Assembly: GCA_964016885.1 (NCBI GenBank) | Contig: OZ024763.1 | Coordinates: forward strand, 4,650,001 to 4,714,000 | DNA from: Eledone cirrhosa | Taxonomy: Eukaryota | DNA length: 64,000 nucleotides | Reading direction: 5' to 3' | Shown: positions 1,504-41,295 of the stretch, in pieces | Layout: every line of letters begins with the position of its first letter | Position numbering within the stretch: the stretch's first letter is position 1 | Made by a program: the position numbers and the translations under genes | The notes under the pieces: generated by a model | The model's input: only the letters and a program-made list of their open reading frames with translations | The model's database searches: none | Told to the model about the DNA's origin: nothing

Positions 1504-2120
1504 TATATGGTTTTATAAAGATAGTTTCCATTTATTAATATTATTGATATTATACGGGGTCGATAAAATAAAGTACCAGTAATACACTGGGTAACTGCTG
1601 GCCTTGTGCCAAAAGTAGAAACAATTGTTGATATTATACTCCAGAAGAATCTTGTAGAGTGCTTATAATCTGTTATAAACTAACTTTGTTGAATAACCAA
1701 CAAATTAAATAACTCATTGCTTATATATGGGATAACAAGTTATCGTTTTAGGTAATCCAGTTCGAGGTTGTGAGTACTCTGTACTATGGATAGTTTTAAC
1801 ATACGGCTTTGTTTGAGTCAACAAGAGGTTTCCTTGGTTAGGTGGCGAGTTTGCGAGAATTCTCATGCAGGGGGTTCTTGGAGTAATAACAGTAAAAGAG
1901 TGAAGAATACCATGGTCGGCTGTACAAATAATTATTTGCAACAAAATCGATTTGGGTTCTAAAAATTTACCGAATTTTTATCATAATTTACTATTATGGG
2001 TTTTCTATTTCAAATTTATTATTGTTGTTGATCTCAGAATTTCACATGTCAATACTATTAGAATCAATAATCACGATAAGTATAAACAAAATATATCAAG
2101 TTAAGAAAAAAATGTCATTA

Positions 2121-2310
2121 GGGTGGTGGATTGGCAGTATCGGTAGAGGGTCGGACGCCATGCTTTCCAGCATAGTTACGTCCCTTTATGATCTGAGTTC
2201 AAATCCCGCCGAGGTTGACTTTGCCTTTCATCCTTACGGGGTCGATAAAATAAAGTACCAGTAATGCACTGGGTAATTTGCTGGCCTTGTACCTAAAGTA
2301 GAAACAATTA
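2121..2310 (+). mobile_element. tRNA-headed SINE, family A, full length
   Basis: A box, B box, conserved body and GCCTTGT.CC.AAAGTAGAAACAATTATT tail. From memory the body resembles the Meta/MESC central domain of mollusc SINEs; this needs a database check. Confidence 0.88.
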
Positions 2311-2420: not shown

Positions 2421-2617
2421 ATATATATATGTGTATCTGTGCGTAATTCTTTTCTTTCGCACCCTTGGTCTGGCAGGTCGCTTTTTTTCTCTCTCTCGTC
2501 TACGATTTCACAGAACTTACGTTCACCGAAATCACAGACTAGATAGATCCCTTCTTCCTCACTTTTCGTTGCTTCACCATTTTTGTTTGTTTACACTCGT
2601 GTCCCCTTTATTTACGT

Positions 2618-2719
2618 GTCCCAACGACTTTTTTTAGCCGTTGCTCGCCCCAACCGGAGGTATATGGTCTTTAAAGCGATGAAATACCAATGATGGTTGG
2701 AAGATCACTGATGAAGGAC
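2618..2719 (+). ncRNA. Candidate non-circularly permuted (pseudoknotted) hammerhead ribozyme, intact core
   Basis: GTCC-hairpin-TCGC..CCAACC..GGTAT-A-TGGTCTT..GCGA-T-GAAA-TACC..GGTTGG-AAGATCA-CTGATGA-A-GGAC. Helix III ATACC/GGTAT and helix I TGGTCTT/AAGATCA abut the core nucleotides exactly. Confidence 0.72.
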
Positions 2720-2769
2720 TAACTTTATTCATATGTAACCCATTAGCAACCCCGCAGCACGTTTATTCT

Positions 2770-3348
<579 letters not shown>

Positions 3349-7576: not shown

Positions 7577-7780
7577 TACATATATACATATTTAACTCCG
7601 TAATAGCACCACCAACTACAAAAACAAAGACGGTTGAACTGCTTTACGTTGAGTACTCTCTATATTATTGCATTACGATTGACCATACGGAATAGACCAG
7701 CTCTACACAGTGGTGAACCTCAAACCTGAATAAATACAGATATACATATATAATGACAAATTAGAATGTAGAAGTTAGGA

Positions 7781-7887
7781 TTATCCGTCATTAGTTGTCT
7801 GCTAGGCATCATAGGCATTTGTTCTTGTTAGAGACAAGATACCTCAGCCCAGGGCGAAACAATAACTAAAGTAAGTTATTGGGATAA
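7781..7887 (-). ncRNA. Degenerate copy of the permuted hammerhead (second subfamily)
   Basis: Same architecture with different helix sequences (TTATCC/GGATAA, CAATAACT/AGTTATTG, TTGTCT/AGACAA, site ATC). Core mutated to CTAATGA and CAAA. Confidence 0.55.
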
Positions 7888-8871
7888 AAAGAAGTGGGTG
7901 GAGAAAGAGAAGGAGAAGGAAGGACATGTGAAGAGACACGATGGGTGAGAAAGAGATGGGGTAAGGAAATTAGAGAGGTGAAGTGATTGAGGTTAGAGGG
8001 AGAGAGTGAGAGAGCAAGAGAGAGAGTGAGAGAGAGTGGGGGGAATTATAGGAGAGAGTAGTGGGAGGAAGCAATATGAGGGAAGGCAACAAATCAGTGA
8101 GAGAGAGGTGGGGGGGGGGAGACGTACGAGAGCGAAAGAAAGGAAATAAGATGAGAGCGAGATATGAGGGAGGAAGTAGTATACTAGAGGGAGAGAGGCA
8201 AGAGTATAGGGGTAGGGGGAAGCAGAAGTATGAGACAGAGAGAGGTGAAGGAAGAGAGAGAGATATGTTGGAAATAGAATGGGAGAAAGTAAGACAGAGA
8301 GAGAAATAGAGTAGAGGGAGGAAGTAATATTAGAGAGAGAGAGAGAGAAAGTGAGGGACGGAGCAGTTTAAGTGTGTGTGATAAAGAGAGGCGGGGGTGA
8401 CTAGAAGGAGGAAAGCAAGGAGATAGAGAATGGTGGGAGAGGGAGGAAGACAACAGTGTAAAAAAAAAAGTGACGACGGTGGGGGAGTGGGTTGGTTATC
8501 TCCCCCTGCTGTTATGTGGCTTGTTTGGTTTGTCCCAAGAGAACATGGTTGGCATGTAAATTGATGTCGCTAGTGTGTAGCAGACGACCTATCAAGTGGG
8601 ACTGACTGCATAAGAATTTTATTGTATGTTCAGTGACAACTACAGGAGGCAACTCCGATATTTACAGAAATGTTTCTAAAAGAGTTGTCTCTCCTGTGCT
8701 GAGAAGGAGAGAGATAGATGTTTTACCGACCTCGAAAAGATGGACGACAAAGTTTTTTTTTTTTTTTAAATAACTTGCAACTTCATTTTCACTGTATATA
8801 GCGATGTATATATATTTGCAATGTAAATATATTAGCGATGTATATATATATATTTGCAATGCATATATATG

Positions 8872-9964: not shown

Positions 9965-11184
9965 TCACTCTACTGCTGAGTTCCAAGGACGCCAAACGTT
10001 AGACGAAGCGAATTTGTTTTCGCTACCCTCTTGGCTTGATACCTTATTATAAATGTGTCCTTTGTTTCTCATGTTTGGTTCTAACACTACAGGATCTGCT
10101 TCATGTAATGGTTGACACCATTGTGGTATTATTTCAGTGGAGGCTGTCGAATTACTTTTTACTATGTTAACATTAGCTGTTGCATGTGGCGAGACAACAC
10201 AAGAGATTTCCTGCATCTTGTCTAATGTTGTATAGAGAGGAATGGCTTTCACCGGTAATGGTGTCGCCACTAAAAACGCGATGGGAGTGCCGTTATTGTT
10301 GCTGAAAATGATGTGGTTTTTGTTGTTGTTGCTGCTGTAACTGTAACTCTCAACACCAGCTTGCTGAGCTATGTCATCCATATTTAATGTGTTAGTAGTA
10401 GTAGTATTAGTAGGATGAGGAGGATGAGGAGGAGGAGTTGTTATCACAGAACTTCTGGAAGTCCTCAGTGATGATACTTCCATCATTTCCTGTTCGTTAA
10501 CTGAACTGGTTGGAGTAATGATGCGTACATAAGCTTTACAATTCTGTTTGGACATGCTTGTGTCTAGTTTTATAGCATGCTGGTGGTTATTTACAAGCTT
10601 TGGTGTGGAATCAGTAATAATGTCAACAGGCTGAAACAAACCTTTTGAGACTGGTGTTATAAATGGTATTGATGTTACATCTCCATTAGGGACAACACAC
10701 GAGATTTCTGGAGTTACTTTACAGTTTGTGTTCTTTATAACATTCCCACTTAGGGTCGGTGTTTGCAAAGGCAATGAAGAACAATCATATTGATTGTTAT
10801 AATTCACAGGAAATTGTTGTGTGCACTTGCTTCTGGTTAAATGTTTTTCAGGCTGGGATACGTTAAGGGTTAATACAGCATTTGTTGTTTGAGCTTGTGT
10901 CTGTGGTTGACTTTGATGGTCACAATTCTGTCTTACTCCAAAGTTTGTCGTCGTTTCCATTTCATCTGAGCTTGACACTGATCCTAGATTTGAGCTGCCA
11001 TCTGAGCTGCTCACCAGTGAACCGTTCTTATAACATTGGTTCAAATGGCTCATGACACGTGTTTGGAATTCATTGTTGCCATAGTCTTTTTTAGATAGAC
11101 AGCGCACAACCTCGTTCATGCAGTCATTGAAACCGGCTTTGTATCGTGGGTGATCACGGAACCCTTGCTCTTTCGACATAACCT
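9965..11184 (-). CDS. Hes: HES gene coding exon 4: Orange domain, S/T/P/N-rich region and WRPW motif (ends VWRPWNSAVE*)
   Basis: Acceptor tttgcag|AG completes the phase-1 codon G|AG. Orange domain RYKAGFNDCMNEVVRCL...RVMSHLNQC and the Groucho/TLE-binding WRPW are present. Total CDS 138+99+94+1220 = 1551 nt, 516 aa. Confidence 0.96.
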
Positions 11185-11223
11185 CTGCAAATTGGAAAAC
11201 AACAATTATTATTAATAATATCA

Positions 11224-11273
<50 letters not shown>

Positions 11274-11279
11274 TGCATT

Positions 11280-15345: not shown

Positions 15346-15444
15346 CTCCTCACGTTTCATATCTTGGAGCAGTAAACACTTTAGTTGTGACAGGCAGTTA
15401 TTGATACGAGCTCGGCGTCTCCTCTCCATCAATGGCTTGTTACT
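15346..15444 (-). CDS. Hes: HES gene coding exon 2: basic region and helix 1 (SNKPLMERRRRARINNCLSQLKCLLLQDMKREE)
   Basis: Acceptor tttgcag|AGT, donor GAG|gtcagt, 99 bp, phase 0/0. The KPxME(K/R)RRRARIN motif with its basic-region proline is diagnostic of Hairy/E(spl) proteins. Confidence 0.95.
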
Positions 15445-15669
15445 CTGCAAATAGTTAACACTTGAATTAAGAGGAGTATCACAGGTTTTTTTTCATCTTG
15501 TTAATACTACTTTTGAATTGAGGCCCAAGGCCGGTAATTTGGGGAGGAGGTGGGCTTAAAAAGGATAAGTATATTATCTCCACCATAGTAGAGCGGAACC
15601 GTCTCATGTGAAGGGGCGTCCAACAGGCTGGTAAGACAGTATATTGATATTAATAATTTAACGTTAAAT

Positions 15670-31273: not shown

Positions 31274-31316
<43 letters not shown>

Positions 31317-31342
31317 GAAAAATAAGAAATTAGAAGTTAGGG

Positions 31343-31449
31343 TTATCCGCCATCGGTTGTCTACTAAGCGTCATAGGCATTTCTTCGCATTAAAGATAAG
31401 ATACCTCGGCCTAGGGCGAAACAATAACTAAAGTAAGTTATTGGGATAA
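31343..31449 (-). ncRNA. Degenerate copy of the permuted hammerhead (second subfamily)
   Basis: Homologous to 7781-7887. GAAA-TGCCT/AGGTAT-C is retained; core mutated to CCGATGG. Confidence 0.55.
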
Positions 31450-32111
31450 AAAGTCTTAGTTTGGTAATTTAGATAAACAATTTAGATAAACTTGAGCTTA
31501 ATTGTTTTATGATATCTCTCTATAAGCCTGTCTGTGTGTCTATGTATGTATCTAAGCCCGTACATCGGTCACACAATCTTTTATAGTCCTTTATGGCAAT
31601 TTGCAGATGAGTGCCGAATGCAAGATAAGGCCGAAACCGGTCAACCAGTTCAAATATCTTGACTAATTACTTTTATATCTCTCCTCTTACCCTTTACTTT
31701 TGTTTATATCTATGTTATTCTTATTTTTACTTTATTTTATTTTATTTTATTTTATTACGTTTCTTTCATAGGTTTTTTTTAATTTTTTACCCATTGTCTT
31801 TTGTCTAATGATATTTCTACTTCTATTTCTTTGATCTATTCGTCTTCATTGATTCTTTTCCCTCCCGACGGGGCTATCTGGTTGGCCCATTTCTGCCGTC
31901 TTATATATATCGCAAATAAAATTATGTTTCTGTTGGAAGACGGTGTGATGGATCAAGAATTTTGAGACTAGAAATAGGTAAAGCCATAACCACTACCTGT
32001 TAATCAATATATCGGTCGACCGTGATCAATCAACCCTCTTAAATGATCGTAAAACAATTGTCTAATAAAGAACCCATCTTCGACTTTTGAGGTAGTGGCG
32101 AGAAGAAGCGG

Positions 32112-32272: not shown

Positions 32273-32324
<52 letters not shown>

Positions 32325-32386
32325 GTGTGTAAATATGATAATAATGGAGCTGCGGCGCTGCAAATGGGTTACATATGAAAAAGTTT

Positions 32387-32487
32387 GTCCTCATCAGTGG
32401 CCTTCCAACCGTCGTAGGCATTTCGTCGCATTAAAAGCCATATACCTCAGGTTGGTGCGAGCAACGGCTAAAAAAAGTCGTTGGGAC
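32387..32487 (-). ncRNA. Candidate non-circularly permuted hammerhead ribozyme, second copy with intact core
   Basis: Minus strand reads GTCC-CAACGACT/AGCCGTTG-CTCGCA-CCAACC-TG-AGGTAT-A-TGGCTTT-TAA-TGCGA-C-GAAA-TGCCT-ACGAC-GGTTGG-AAGGCCA-CTGATGA-GGAC. Helix I differs from the 2618 copy by pairing-preserving changes. Confidence 0.72.
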
Positions 32488-32695
32488 ACGTAAATAAAGG
32501 GGACGCTAGGGTAAACAAACAAAATGGTTTAAGCAACAGAAAGTGTGTATATATATATACACACGTTTTTCCTGTATATTTGCTTTTATCTCTCCGAATT
32601 CCACACTTTATCTACACCTTCCATTCACAGCAATACATACACGGAGAAACGCAAAGGTCAGCATGTGTAATAAGAAGCTTGTCTTGACTCTAATA

Positions 32696-37686: not shown

Positions 37687-37875
37687 TAATTGTTTCTACT
37701 TTAGGCACAAGGCCAGCAATTACCCAGTGCATTACTGGTACTTTATTTTATCGACCCCGTAAGGATGAAAGGCAAAGTCAACTTCGGCGGGATTTGAACT
37801 CAGATCGTAAAGGGACGTAACTATGCTGGAAAGCATGGCGTCCGACTCTCTACCGATACTGCCAATCCACCGCCC
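37687..37875 (-). mobile_element. SINE family A, continuous with the 45-bp array
   Basis: Full body and B box; its 5' head is the first unit of the array. Confidence 0.88.
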
Positions 37876-40028
37876 TAGCATGGCGTCCGACCCTCTACCG
37901 ATACTGCCAATCCACCGCCCTAGCATGGCGTCCAACCCTCTACCGATACTGCCAATCCACCGCCCTAGCATGGCGTCCGACCCTCTACCGATACTGCCAA
38001 TCCACCGCCCTAGCATGGCGTCCGACCCTCTACCGATACTGCCAATCCACCGCCCTAGCATGGCGTCCGACCCTCTACCGATACTGCCAATCAACCGCCC
38101 TAGCATGGCGTCCAACCCTCTACCGATACTGCCAATCCACCGCCCTAGCATGGCGTCCGACCCTCTACCGATACTGCCAATCCACCGCCCTAGCATGGCG
38201 TCCGACCCTCTACCGATACTGCCAATCCACCGCCCTAGCATGGCGTCCGACCCTCTACCGATACTGCCAATCCACCGCCCTAGCATGGCGTCCAACCCTC
38301 TACCGATACTGCCAATCCACCGCCCTAGCATGGCGTCCGACCCTCTACCGATACTGCCAATCCACCGCCCTAGCATGGCGTCCGACCCTCTACCGATACT
38401 GCCAATCCACCGCCCTAGCATGGCGTCCGACCCTCTACCGATACTGCCAATCCACCGCCCTAGCATGGCGTCCAACCCTCTACCGATACTGCCAATCCAC
38501 CGCCCTAGCATGGCGTCCGACCCTCTACCGATACTGCCAATCCACCGCCCTAGCATGGCGTCCGACCCTCTACCGATACTGCCAATCCACCGCCCTAGCA
38601 TGGCGTCCGACCCTCTACCGATACTGCCAATCCACCGCCCTAGCATGGCGTCCGACCCTCTACCGATACTGCCAATCCACCGCCCTAGCATGGCGTCCAA
38701 CCCTCTACCGATACTGCCAATCCACCGCCCTAGCATGGCGTCCAACCCTCTACCGATACTGCCAATCCACCGCCCTAGCATGGCGTCCGACCCTCTACCG
38801 ATACTGCCAATCCACCGCCCTAGCATGGCGTCCGACCCTCTACCGATACTGCCAATCCACCGCCCTAGCATGGCGTCCGACCCTCTACCGATACTGCCAA
38901 TCCACCGCCCTAGCATGGCGTCCAACCCTCTACCGATACTGCCAATCCACCGCCCTAGCATGGCGTCCGACCCTCTACCGATACTGCCAATCCACCGCCC
39001 TAGCATGGCGTCCAACCCTCTACCGATACTGCCAATCCACCGCCCTAGCATGGCGTCCGACCCTCCACCGATACTGCCAATCCACCGCCCTAGCATGGCG
39101 TCCAACCCTCTACCGATACTGCCAATCCACCGCCCTAGCATGGCGTCCAACCCTCTACCGATACTGCCAATCCACCGCCCTAGCATGGCGTCCGACCCTC
39201 TACCGATACTGCCAATCCACCGCCCTAGCATGGCGTCCGACCCTCTACCGATACTGCCAATCCACCGCCCTAGCATGGCGTCCGACCCTCTACCGATACT
39301 GCCAATCCACCGCCCTAGCATGGCGTCCAACCCTCTACCGATACTGCCAATCCACCGCCCTAGCATGGCGTCCGACCCTCCACCGATACTGCCAATCCAC
39401 CGCCCTAGCATGGCGTCCGACCCTCTACCGATACTGCCAATCCACCGCCCTAGCATGGCGTCCGACCCTCCACCGATACTGCCAATCCACCGCCCTAGCA
39501 TGGCGTCCGACCCTCTACCGATACTGCCAATCCACCGCCCTAGCATGGCGTCCGACCCTCTACCGATACTGCCAATCCACCGCCCTAGCATGGCGTCCGA
39601 CCCTCTACCGATACTGCCAATCCACCGCCCTAGCATGGCGTCCGACCCTCTACCGATACTGCCAATCCACCGCCCTAGCATGGCGTCCAACCCTCTACCG
39701 ATACTGCCAATCCACCGCCCTAGCATGGCGTCCGACCCTCCACCGATACTGCCAATCCACCGCCCTAGCATGGCGTCCGACCCTCTACCGATACTGCCAA
39801 TCCACCGCCCTAGCATGGCGTCCGACCCTCCACCGATACTGCCAATCCACCGCCCTAGCATGGCGTCCGACCCTCTACCGATACTGCCAATCCACCGCCC
39901 TAGCATGGCGTCCGACCCTCTACCGATACTGCCAATCCACCGCCCTAGCATGGCGTCCGACCCTCTACCGATACTGCCAATCCACCGCCCTAGCATGGCG
40001 TCCGACCCTCTACCGATACTGCCAATCC
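37832..40028. repeat. 45-bp tandem array (about 49 copies) of the SINE 5' head
   Basis: Unit TAGCATGGCGTCCGACCCTCTACCGATACTGCCAATCCACCGCCC, near perfect. Confidence 0.97.
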
Positions 40029-40451
40029 TATCAATAATAGTTCAGGAAATCAGGTAAAACAACCCCGTAAATAAATGTAGGTTCCACTGAAATGCTCACG
40101 CGTTGAGAAACGAGTGAACATGGTGCGGACTGCGACAGGGAAGCTGAGAATATTCCAGATCTGCTTCGAAAAACTGGAAGGGCCGCAGGGTTAAGTGTGG
40201 GTGGGGATTAACGATTAAAATCCATTAAATATGTAATTTCTTTTTTTATTTTTTTTTTATTTTTATTTTTTTTTTTTTTTACTTCAGCCCAAGGTCGGAT
40301 ACTTTTTCGACATACAACGTATGTCATGATGTAACGCAGCAACAGTGTGGATAGCAAAATGATTTGATCTGAAATAACTATCTGGCCGTCTGCAGCATTA
40401 AGGCTTCTATTATATAGCACGTGCACGCGCACGCACGCACACACACACACA

Positions 40452-40526
<75 letters not shown>

Positions 40527-40544
40527 GTCGTTAAGTATGAAACT

Positions 40545-41295
40545 CACTCAGATGGTGGATGGGTGCTACACGAGAATGTTGAGAATGGCTCTGAACATTA
40601 ATCAGTATACACTGAGGATGAAGAACTCAGAGCTGTATGGGAGCCTCTCAAAAGTCAGCTCGAAAGTGACACAGATGAGACTGAGGTTAGCTGGACATGC
40701 TCACCGACATCCAGAGTTGACATTGCACTCAGTGCTCCTGTGGGAGCCCCTACATGGACACACTGGAAGACGGAGACTGAGGTTGGCTGGACATGCTGAC
40801 CGACATCCAGAGTTGACATTGCACTCAGTGCTCCTGTGGGAGCCCCTACATGGACACACTGGAAGACGGAGACTGAGGTTAGCTGGACATGCTGACCGAC
40901 ATCCAGAGTTGACATTACACTCAGTGCTCCTGTGGGAGCCCCTACATGGACACACTGGAAGACGGAGACTGAGGTTAGCTGGACATGCTCACCGACATCC
41001 AGAGTTGACATTACACTCAGTGCTCCTGTGGGAGCCCCTACATGGACACACTGGAAGACGGAGACTGAGGTTAGCTGGACATGCTCACCGACATCCAGAG
41101 TTGACATTACACTCAGTGCTCCTGTGGGAGCCCCTACATGGACACACTGGAAGAGGAAGACCGAGGTTAACATATGTTGATGCCCTAAGGACAGACACTG
41201 GTCTGATGGAGACGCAGGACATGGCACCGATAATGAGGGACAGAGACCGCTTGAGAGAACACGTCCACGGATATAGGGAATTTTACCCGCCCTTT
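40545..41295 (+). mobile_element. RTE-like LINE 3' end containing a 5x 96-bp internal tandem duplication
   Basis: DGCYTRMLRMALNI..RLRLAGH..LLWEP.HG..GRGRPRLTYVD.L..DTG is typical of the C-terminus of RTE-clade ORFs. Confidence 0.8.

Follow-up and report, generated by a model that had tools for sequence, protein, structure and literature searches.

A Predicted Type-SGC Hammerhead Ribozyme with a Split Stem II on a Retrozyme-like, Probably Naiad-Derived Repeat of Eledone cirrhosa

The window analysed here is a 64,000-nt stretch of the genome of Eledone cirrhosa (assembly GCA_964016885.1, contig OZ024763.1, positions 4,650,001 to 4,714,000 of the forward strand), and the positions below are counted from its first letter. 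Exons of a HES/hairy-type gene lie on the minus strand at 9965-11278 and about 15350-15492, with an HLH match, a Hairy Orange match and WRPW near the end of the frame. A 33-bp tandem array in which several frames are open occupies about 37800-40050, and a retrotransposon-like reading-frame fragment, in which a short internal stretch is repeated several times, is located at about 40500-41290 on the plus strand. About ten type I-like hammerhead motifs are found in other repeats of the window (1449+, 17635+, 34431+, 6758-, 16803-, 45278-, 45603-, 47004-, 49287- and 49709-); in most of them stem III is AT, palindromic and very short and the site is AUA, and none reaches the Rfam gathering score. 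The ribozyme motif discussed in this report occurs in four repeat copies. The copy at 2618 lies about 7.3 kb downstream of the HES/hairy-type gene on the opposite strand, and the copy at 7779 about 2.1 kb downstream of it on the same strand. The features are as follows.

2437-2770, plus strand: 5'-truncated copy of the subfamily A monomer with an internal gap and a (TA)n end, from blastn against the whole L008 monomer (the match extends to 2784 within the TA tract)
2618-2719, plus strand: predicted hammerhead of type SGC in which stem II is split and P1 closes the motif, from sequence and covariation
2618-2621 and 2716-2719, plus strand: P1, 5' strand GTCC and 3' strand GGAC
2622-2643, plus strand: P2 hairpin, an arm of the four-way junction; both sides change in 4 of 8 pairs
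2645-2648, plus strand: P3, the third strand of stem II (TCGC), partner GCGA at 2676-2679; compensation in subfamily F
2650-2655, plus strand: P4 tether helix, 5' strand CCAACC, partner GGTTGG at 2695-2700; both sides change in 5 of 6 pairs
2656-2658, plus strand: kink-turn non-bulged strand (3n, G2n, A1n), by the definition of PMC5061560 in its available text and 177 copies
2659-2671, plus strand: block S, with stem III strand GGTAT (2659-2663), H17 and stem I strand (2665-2671)
2663 and 2664, plus strand: U16.1 and H17 (A2664), with the cut predicted 3' of A2664; H17 is A or C in 13 of 13 cluster consensuses
2676-2688, plus strand: block G, with stem II strand, U11.1 (T2680), GAAA (2681-2684) and stem III strand TACC (2685-2688)
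2689-2694, plus strand: kink-turn bulged strand (3-nt bulge, G1b, A2b, 3b), from 177 copies
2701-2715, plus strand: block C, with stem I strand (2701-2707), CTGATGA (2708-2714) and A10.1 (A2715)
7749-7949, minus strand: subfamily B copy with mutated core; ribozyme 7779-7888
31311-31453, minus strand: subfamily B copy with mutated core; ribozyme 31341-31450
32323-32545, minus strand: subfamily C copy with intact core and G10.1-C11.1; ribozyme 32383-32490

A preliminary description of the window had read 2618-2719 as a full hammerhead core whose blocks stand in an order outside circular permutation, with helix II reduced to the one core-strand pair A2715-T2680 and with several extra helices. All the coordinates it claimed for this copy are exact when re-read from the window sequence. 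A descriptor open to all six block orders finds S-G-C at 2618-2719, where stem I has 8, stem II 1 and stem III 5 pairs outward from the core; the orders CGS, GSC and SCG, which are types I-III and the Rfam families, were not found there. The comparison with Rfam that had been proposed matched no hammerhead family. Nothing in the 64,000-nt window reaches a gathering score, and none of the 39 matches up to E 10 around the 2618 locus is to a hammerhead family. A10.1 (2715) is the sole stem II base on the block C strand, the other four pairs coming from 2645-2648, and P4 links distal stem II to distal stem I. We infer that stem II consists of one pair plus P3 and that it forms a four-way junction with P1 and P2; the three-dimensional fold proposed for the motif is likewise drawn from covariation. 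The hammerhead core and the in-register stems are all present at 2618-2719, and self-cleavage is predicted with high confidence.

At least eight subfamilies keep the core and compensate in all seven helices. This covariation agrees with the S-G-C order (given as C-B-A in the preliminary description), with the single core-strand pair of helix II, with the extra helices GTCC/GGAC, the hairpin, TCGC/GCGA and CCAACC/GGTTGG, and with the placement of the predicted site 3' of A2664. It also agrees with the exact register in which helices I and III adjoin the core, stem III being the weakest. The description had looked to covariation in each helix, and two inner pairs of stem III, 15.1-16.1 and 15.2-16.2, did not provide it, as they are invariant in the alignment. 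Stem III has one compensating path, in which 15.3-16.3 is A-U, G.U or G-C across subfamilies; 119 scattered genome copies have another base at 16.2, and the pair is restored in 1 of the 100 listed. Preferential conservation of the core, on which the original reading had leaned, was found: CUGANGA, GAAA and U16.1 are invariant in eight consensuses of at least three members each, and 36 of 71 columns vary. Across 13 consensuses N7 is T or C and H17 is A or C, never G, and G12A occurs in one two-member cluster.

Pairing was scored on 39 copies (36 distinct) chosen from 162 full-length matches. Paired cells amount to 93.2% vs 83.0% in shuffled and 28-47% in slid alignments, figures that do not represent a probability, the structure having been derived from this same set of related sequences. 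Both sides change in 20 of the 35 pairs, and the covariation events are few because the covarying sequences are related. A blind scan of 565 variable column pairs gave 10 strict Watson-Crick covariations, 8 of them in the model, and all three pairs with three Watson-Crick types belong to the model, one of them being 10.1-11.1. These stricter rules had been substituted for a first blind scan that allowed G.U and was dropped as uninformative (58 matches of 902, 9 in the model). The 10.1-11.1 pair is A-U in subfamily A, U-A in B, E and G, G-C in C and G.U in D and F; in subfamily C, C at 11.1 accompanies the loss of one base after the core. Faster hammerhead spellings are known than A-U or U-A at 10.1-11.1 and than AUA sites. 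In stem I both sides change in 6 of 7 pairs, with the seventh pair open in 23 of 36 sequences, and the first pair of P1 is G-C in 23 and A-U in 13 of the 36 distinct sequences. P3 appeared invariant before subfamily F was queried. In the first 100 of 1,225 subfamily F matches, counted by hand, the pair is C-G in 52, U-A in 45, C.A in 3 and U.G in 0, and six subfamily F loci were read out with intact cores; this covariation represents one lineage, and both changes are CpG-type transitions. Single-strand folding of the window copy gives only P1, P2, P4 and III, with a z of -1.1 that is not better than shuffles, and RNAalifold gives the nested helices P2, P4 and III only.

The loop joining stem III to P4 lies between two helices and fits the kink-turn consensus, in which a 3-nt bulge precedes G.A and A.G, the simple definition given in the available text of PMC5061560. 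Among 177 copies, A2b is present in 177, A1n in 175, G1b in 173 and G2n in 139; the 34 copies with U at 2n, the usual non-standard change, are subfamily E. The 3b.3n position is U.U in 70 copies, U.G in 50 and C.U in 45, and it is Watson-Crick in 3 of the 177. By the rule in the accessible part of PMC4382518, metal ions should by themselves be enough to fold the U.G and C.U forms. A further subfamily, at L308 and L311, has A.G at 3b.3n as in Kt-7. The kink would turn stem III back toward stem I; a problem of stem geometry has been raised for SGC by Eckert et al. in the portion of PMC10085705 consulted. It is suggested that a host L7Ae-family protein could switch cutting via the kink-turn in the Eledone family. 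A search for papers since 2015 that bring together a hammerhead, a kink-turn, a four-way junction and a retrotransposon found none.

The preliminary description had claimed three further copies in the window that keep the architecture, and blastn and nhmmer find three besides 2618. A covariance model built from the 39 copies finds four in the window (2615-2723+, 32383-32490-, 31341-31450- and 7779-7888-), all of which were in its training set. The helices are kept in all of them, but besides 2618 only 32387 has an intact core, the cores at 7781 and 31343 being broken (CTAATGA with CAAA; CCGATGG). The majority core of subfamily B is intact, in 21 of 23 copies, and the 7781 and 31343 copies are decayed members of that subfamily.

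In the 3.0-Gb genome, blocks G and C at fixed spacing (GAAA-stem III, 19 free bases, CUGANGA) gave 16,920 exact matches vs 2 for the reversed pattern, so the recurrence of the motif is not due to chance. Of 33 such matches read by eye, 1 was unrelated and 4 more were without the upstream part. There are 1,215 candidates for the 2618 copy, 909 for the 31343 copy and 1,348 for a further subfamily. In forty 10-kb genome stretches chosen regardless of content, 12 profile matches were found, from which the genome may hold several tens of thousands of ribozyme-unit fragments. Altogether 261 profile matches represent 217 distinct places, 203 of them gap-free in the core stretch, and they form 14 clusters with at least two copies and 8 with at least three; over the motif, divergence among the five large clusters is 16.5-38%. 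Similarity served to gather subfamilies A, B and E, a pattern for blocks S and G to gather C, and a GAAA plus core pattern to gather loci L121-L140, so that core counts for those loci are pre-selected. A subfamily with a GUH site was looked for in the genome and not found. Beyond this genome, tight patterns for relatives found 0 matches in contigs from metagenomes and likewise 0 in those of viruses, and a loose pattern gave 118 stretches, of which 80 were scanned with the covariance model for 0 matches. A second SGC family, unrelated in sequence, was observed at L059:1780-2000 (-), L039:1025-1234 (+) and L018:2826-2933 and 2105-2157 (-). In this family stem II is all third-strand, the site is GUC, a bulge replaces the kink-turn, the body is pyrimidine-rich and the flanks are TA.

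The carrier of the motif is a non-coding tandem unit of 470-700 nt that is 5'-truncated, often inverted, and ends in (TA)n. Same-strand spacing is 631-639 nt in subfamily A (one 589), 654-706 in A2, 575 in B, 622-624 in C, 520-532 in D (one 444), 538-566 in E, and 470 and 546 in two small clusters. Four monomers each have one core and a longest ATG frame of 32-123 aa; as circles they are 40-46% paired and not rod-like, 2 of 4 being not better than shuffles. Within the subfamily A monomer L008:1516-2146 a segment of about 110-130 nt is duplicated, a possible reason for the greater length of the A and C units. The 3' ends are fixed, with 147 of 203 copies entering a microsatellite 50-160 nt past the predicted cut, and the distances to the 5' ends are flat. 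Each subfamily has two 3' end sites, after a TTC-AT-like word; for subfamily A, the query used favours the farther of the two. The 29 distinct places among the best subfamily A matches include two whole tandem ribozymes in 10 and an abutting inverted piece in 5. The 40 matches scored for this subfamily are 98-100% identical, and it is thus young. Derived changes are shared more by tandem partners than by unlinked copies, 0.115 vs 0.032. At the 5' junction of the L107 (-) retrozyme there are three stuttered repeats of part of the ribozyme, as if a polymerase had slipped at a structure.

The 5' ends are scattered without a pile-up at the predicted cut site, which fits a circle and equally an uncut template. 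Since the copies begin downstream of the cut and continue across it, often twice, their template must have been either a circle or a multimer left uncut. Contigs from 4 runs of 1 study, none listed as holding RNA, contain the unit together with its head-to-tail joint and, 70 nt past the cut, loose ATAT ends; they do not bear on expression. The insertion anatomy and the (TA)n target are those of Penelope-like elements, and one hammerhead per non-coding tandem unit is found as in a retrozyme, although the hammerhead is not type I.

Where did such a unit come from? Naiads are autonomous Penelope-like elements of 3.4-4.4 kb with GIY-YIG followed by RT. In the available text of Craig et al. 2021 (PMC8557442) they are described as without canonical hammerheads, some being labelled 'core' or 'half core', and the cephalopod Naiads as long inactive. 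The same source gives the anatomy of Naiads and Penelope-like elements as (TA)n targets, 5' truncation, partial tandems and inverted 5' pieces. Its consensus file lists 54 consensi, which were parsed by eye in passages around the core spellings CTGATGA (places 1-55 of 62), CTGAAGA (5-31 of 43), CTGACGA (3-16 of 23) and CTGAGGA (3-16 of 25), the names being taken from the next header; line breaks in the file hide some core spellings. In these passages 16 of the 54 consensi could be parsed, ten with the split wiring and six as CSG, and passages with a core and no clear stem II (supplement parts 16-19, 25 and 26) were left uncounted. All parsed Naiads follow one cyclic order: core, stem II strand, tether, S, G, tether.

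The 3' ends of Naiad_Obim and Naiad_Ovul have P1, a hairpin with a TATTTT loop, stem II GACACC/GGTGTC, a P4 of five pairs, a TGA / NNT-GA-T kink-turn and a GUA site. By eye, these octopus Naiads have the same ribozyme architecture as the Eledone element, a likeness read in the ribozyme region of the 3' ends. The spacing from GAAA to the core is 23 bases in both and in the Eledone family, the kink-turn spelling is also the same, and the TATTTT hairpin loop is common to both and to Eledone subfamilies D, F and G. In the two octopus consensi G10.1 is supplied by the third strand, so the junction is shifted by one pair relative to the Eledone family. Split wiring with bulges instead of a kink-turn was read by eye in the near-identical corals Naiad_Amil, Naiad_Aacu and Naiad_Anas; it was also read in four passages without a visible header and, doubtfully, in Naiad_Bfor, where stem I has 2 pairs. 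Type CSG with a long tether helix was read in Naiad-1, -2 and -3_Nbra, in Naiad_Hcon and in two unnamed passages, so that in the nematode Naiads stem II is unsplit, unlike that of Eledone.

The best explanation of these observations, with a probability of roughly 0.8, is that the motif is a self-cleaving S-G-C hammerhead on a non-autonomous retrozyme that arose from a Naiad-type element's 3' end. That the motif cleaves is very probable, descent of the carrier from Naiads is likely, and a circular intermediate in its life cycle is favoured by only a narrow margin. In the proposed fold stems I and III flank the core as usual, stem II is made of one core-strand pair and four third-strand pairs, P4 ties distal stem II to distal stem I, and stem III is folded back onto P4 by the kink-turn. 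Transcripts reading through tandem units would be cut 3' of H17 (A2664 here) to give unit-length RNAs, which would probably be circularised. A Penelope-type endonuclease would nick (TA)n, and the nick would prime on an ATAT-like site that lies about 60-130 nt 3' of the cut; the reverse transcriptase, running through at least one unit, would leave 5'-truncated, tandem and inverted copies. An active core would be needed only in source copies, with inserted copies left to decay.

A functional ribozyme and retrozyme could also exist with no Naiad ancestry, either as an independent invention or as a passenger of the other Penelope-like elements of the genome. In 1.03 Mb of Eledone loci no Naiad protein motif was found, and the Penelope-like elements found in the genome carry ordinary type I hammerheads. 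One such family (L279-L298 and L058) has 15,465 candidates, and 13 of 20 loci bear a type I hammerhead in their 3' region; by its DKT motif, as used in the available part of PMC8557442, it is putatively Hydra-clade. The L058 element was first taken for a Naiad and was set aside as a donor for its C-terminal endonuclease region and type I hammerhead. Pfam searches of three Penelope-like fragments gave no RT match for two and weak GIY-YIG matches for the third. At L014 (about 900-1011, +), a GIY-YIG Penelope-like 3' region bearing a type I hammerhead-like motif joins a retrozyme 5' end with no TA between them, possibly by a template switch, a junction which would suit transport by another element. 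Against this, the block spacing, kink-turn spelling and hairpin loop are identical in the octopus Naiad consensi, and helper and ancestor may be different elements. An origin outside Naiads is considered unlikely. The helper of the present-day element may still not be a Naiad, given the absence of the motif from those loci, the reported inactivity of cephalopod Naiads and the many type I Penelope-like elements.

Far less probable is a real ribozyme that folds across two or three tandem units and so recovers a canonical order with blocks of its neighbours. The units do occur in tandem, dimeric hammerheads are known in amphibian retrozymes (PMC7229834, available sections), and covariation does not distinguish pairs in cis from pairs in trans. 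However, all partners lie within 102 nt and every helix is shorter than one turn, and a canonical order would require loops of about 600 nt. Furthermore, monomeric SGC RNAs with similar linker lengths cut in cis according to the text at hand of PMC10085705, and in those passages of the Naiad consensi that were compared the motif occurs singly, at the 3' end. Equally improbable is a conserved protein-binding signal, a docking site for reverse transcriptase or an L7Ae-family protein through box C/D-like words, in place of a catalyst. UGAUGA is a box C word too, the kink-turn strands resemble boxes C and D in several subfamilies, and fixed 3' ends 60-130 nt downstream suggest a role in recognition. 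A docking signal does not account for three helices that adjoin CUGANGA, GAAA and UH in exact hammerhead register or for variation of N7 and H17 within hammerhead rules, and the Naiad relatives in the consensi parsed keep the core where plain bulges replace the kink-turn. Least credible is a DNA-level satellite or rolling-circle repeat with the hammerhead as a relic, for which the modest sharing of derived changes by tandem partners could be cited, but which is opposed by fixed 3' ends, scattered 5' ends and 5' inversions as marks of target-primed reverse transcription, by the core and pairing kept in each separately amplified subfamily, and by the youth of subfamily A.

The reading of the motif as a Naiad-derived ribozyme can be extended. 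From the parsed part of the consensus file, the balance of evidence leans towards Naiads across animal phyla carrying active non-circular hammerheads at their 3' ends, one cyclic wiring opened in various ways (CSG in nematodes, split SGC elsewhere), and spawning retrozymes of tens of thousands of copies. If this is true, non-circular hammerheads would be among the commonest ribozymes of invertebrate genomes, and the hammerhead core would work with the backbone link from A9 to 10.1 broken. Non-circular hammerheads would move from a few hundred environmental contigs to high-copy animal genomes, with a biological job, and the split stem II would break the stated rule against interrupted hammerhead blocks. 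Since descriptors of types I-III and Rfam miss the split SGC form, surveys of ribozymes and retrozymes undercount. A direct answer would also be offered to an open point on Penelope elements, as Naiads, reported in the available text of PMC8557442 to proliferate without canonical hammerheads, had fed the idea of ribozymes as dispensable parasites. Being compact, the motif is also a suitable target for structure determination, which non-circular hammerheads still lack.

With regard to known systems, the S-G-C order was named type SGC by Eckert et al. 2023 (PMC10085705), in whose accessible sections it is validated in vitro at 0.007-0.19 per min. SGC is represented there by 583 examples, from RNA metatranscriptomes only, and CSG by 5 in metagenomes; in genomes of known organisms none of the permuted hammerheads is reported except one GCS candidate. 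A 2026 paper (PMC13725137) mentions other permutations only by citation in its available part. In the literature searched, which took in few subscription papers, 'Type-SGC' was found in one paper, and no SGC or CSG hammerhead in animal genomes, split stem II or Naiad ribozyme was found. Comparison with published rearranged hammerheads therefore leaves the preliminary description, which could not place the family, with an order already in print; the Eledone family and its wiring were not found in print.

Like the HRIMA-1/SGC variant of PMC10085705, the Eledone motif has the S-G-C order, a short stem I-II linker, a stem I-II tether helix (here P4) and the full core. The SGC motifs of Eckert et al. 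are metatranscriptomic, average about 61-65 nt and have stem II wholly between blocks C and G, and uninterrupted blocks are assumed in the text available. The Eledone motif differs in being genomic and about 102 nt long; its block C parts from stem II after a single pair, and a four-way junction and a kink-turn are predicted. As predicted from its sequence, the window RNA is the SGC wiring with its original termini linked by way of the kink-turn strand and a fresh opening made within stem II, which is a further circular permutation of SGC/CSG. The loop resembles simple kink-turns (Huang and Lilley, PMC5061560, and McPhee et al., PMC4382518, in part) in its bulge, its G.A and A.G pairs and C-G at -1b,-1n, and one subfamily has U at 2n like Kt-23; unlike known simple kink-turns, its kink and protein binding are predictions from sequence.

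Non-LTR retrozymes carry a type I hammerhead and were first described with 170-400 nt (Cervera and de la Pena 2020, PMC7229834, sections at hand), and units of 51-972 bp are given in the available text of Li et al. (bioRxiv 10.64898/2026.07.22.740005), a range that includes the Eledone unit. The Eledone carrier is like them in its non-coding tandem unit with one hammerhead each, its thousands of copies and its proposed Penelope-like helper. It is unlike those first described in being longer than 170-400 nt, pyrimidine-rich, not highly self-paired, SGC instead of type I and known from DNA only, and the type I descriptors of published retrozyme searches would miss it. With Naiads, as far as the parsed passages go, the carrier shares (TA)n targets, 5' truncation, tandems, 5' inversions and, by eye, the cyclic ribozyme wiring.
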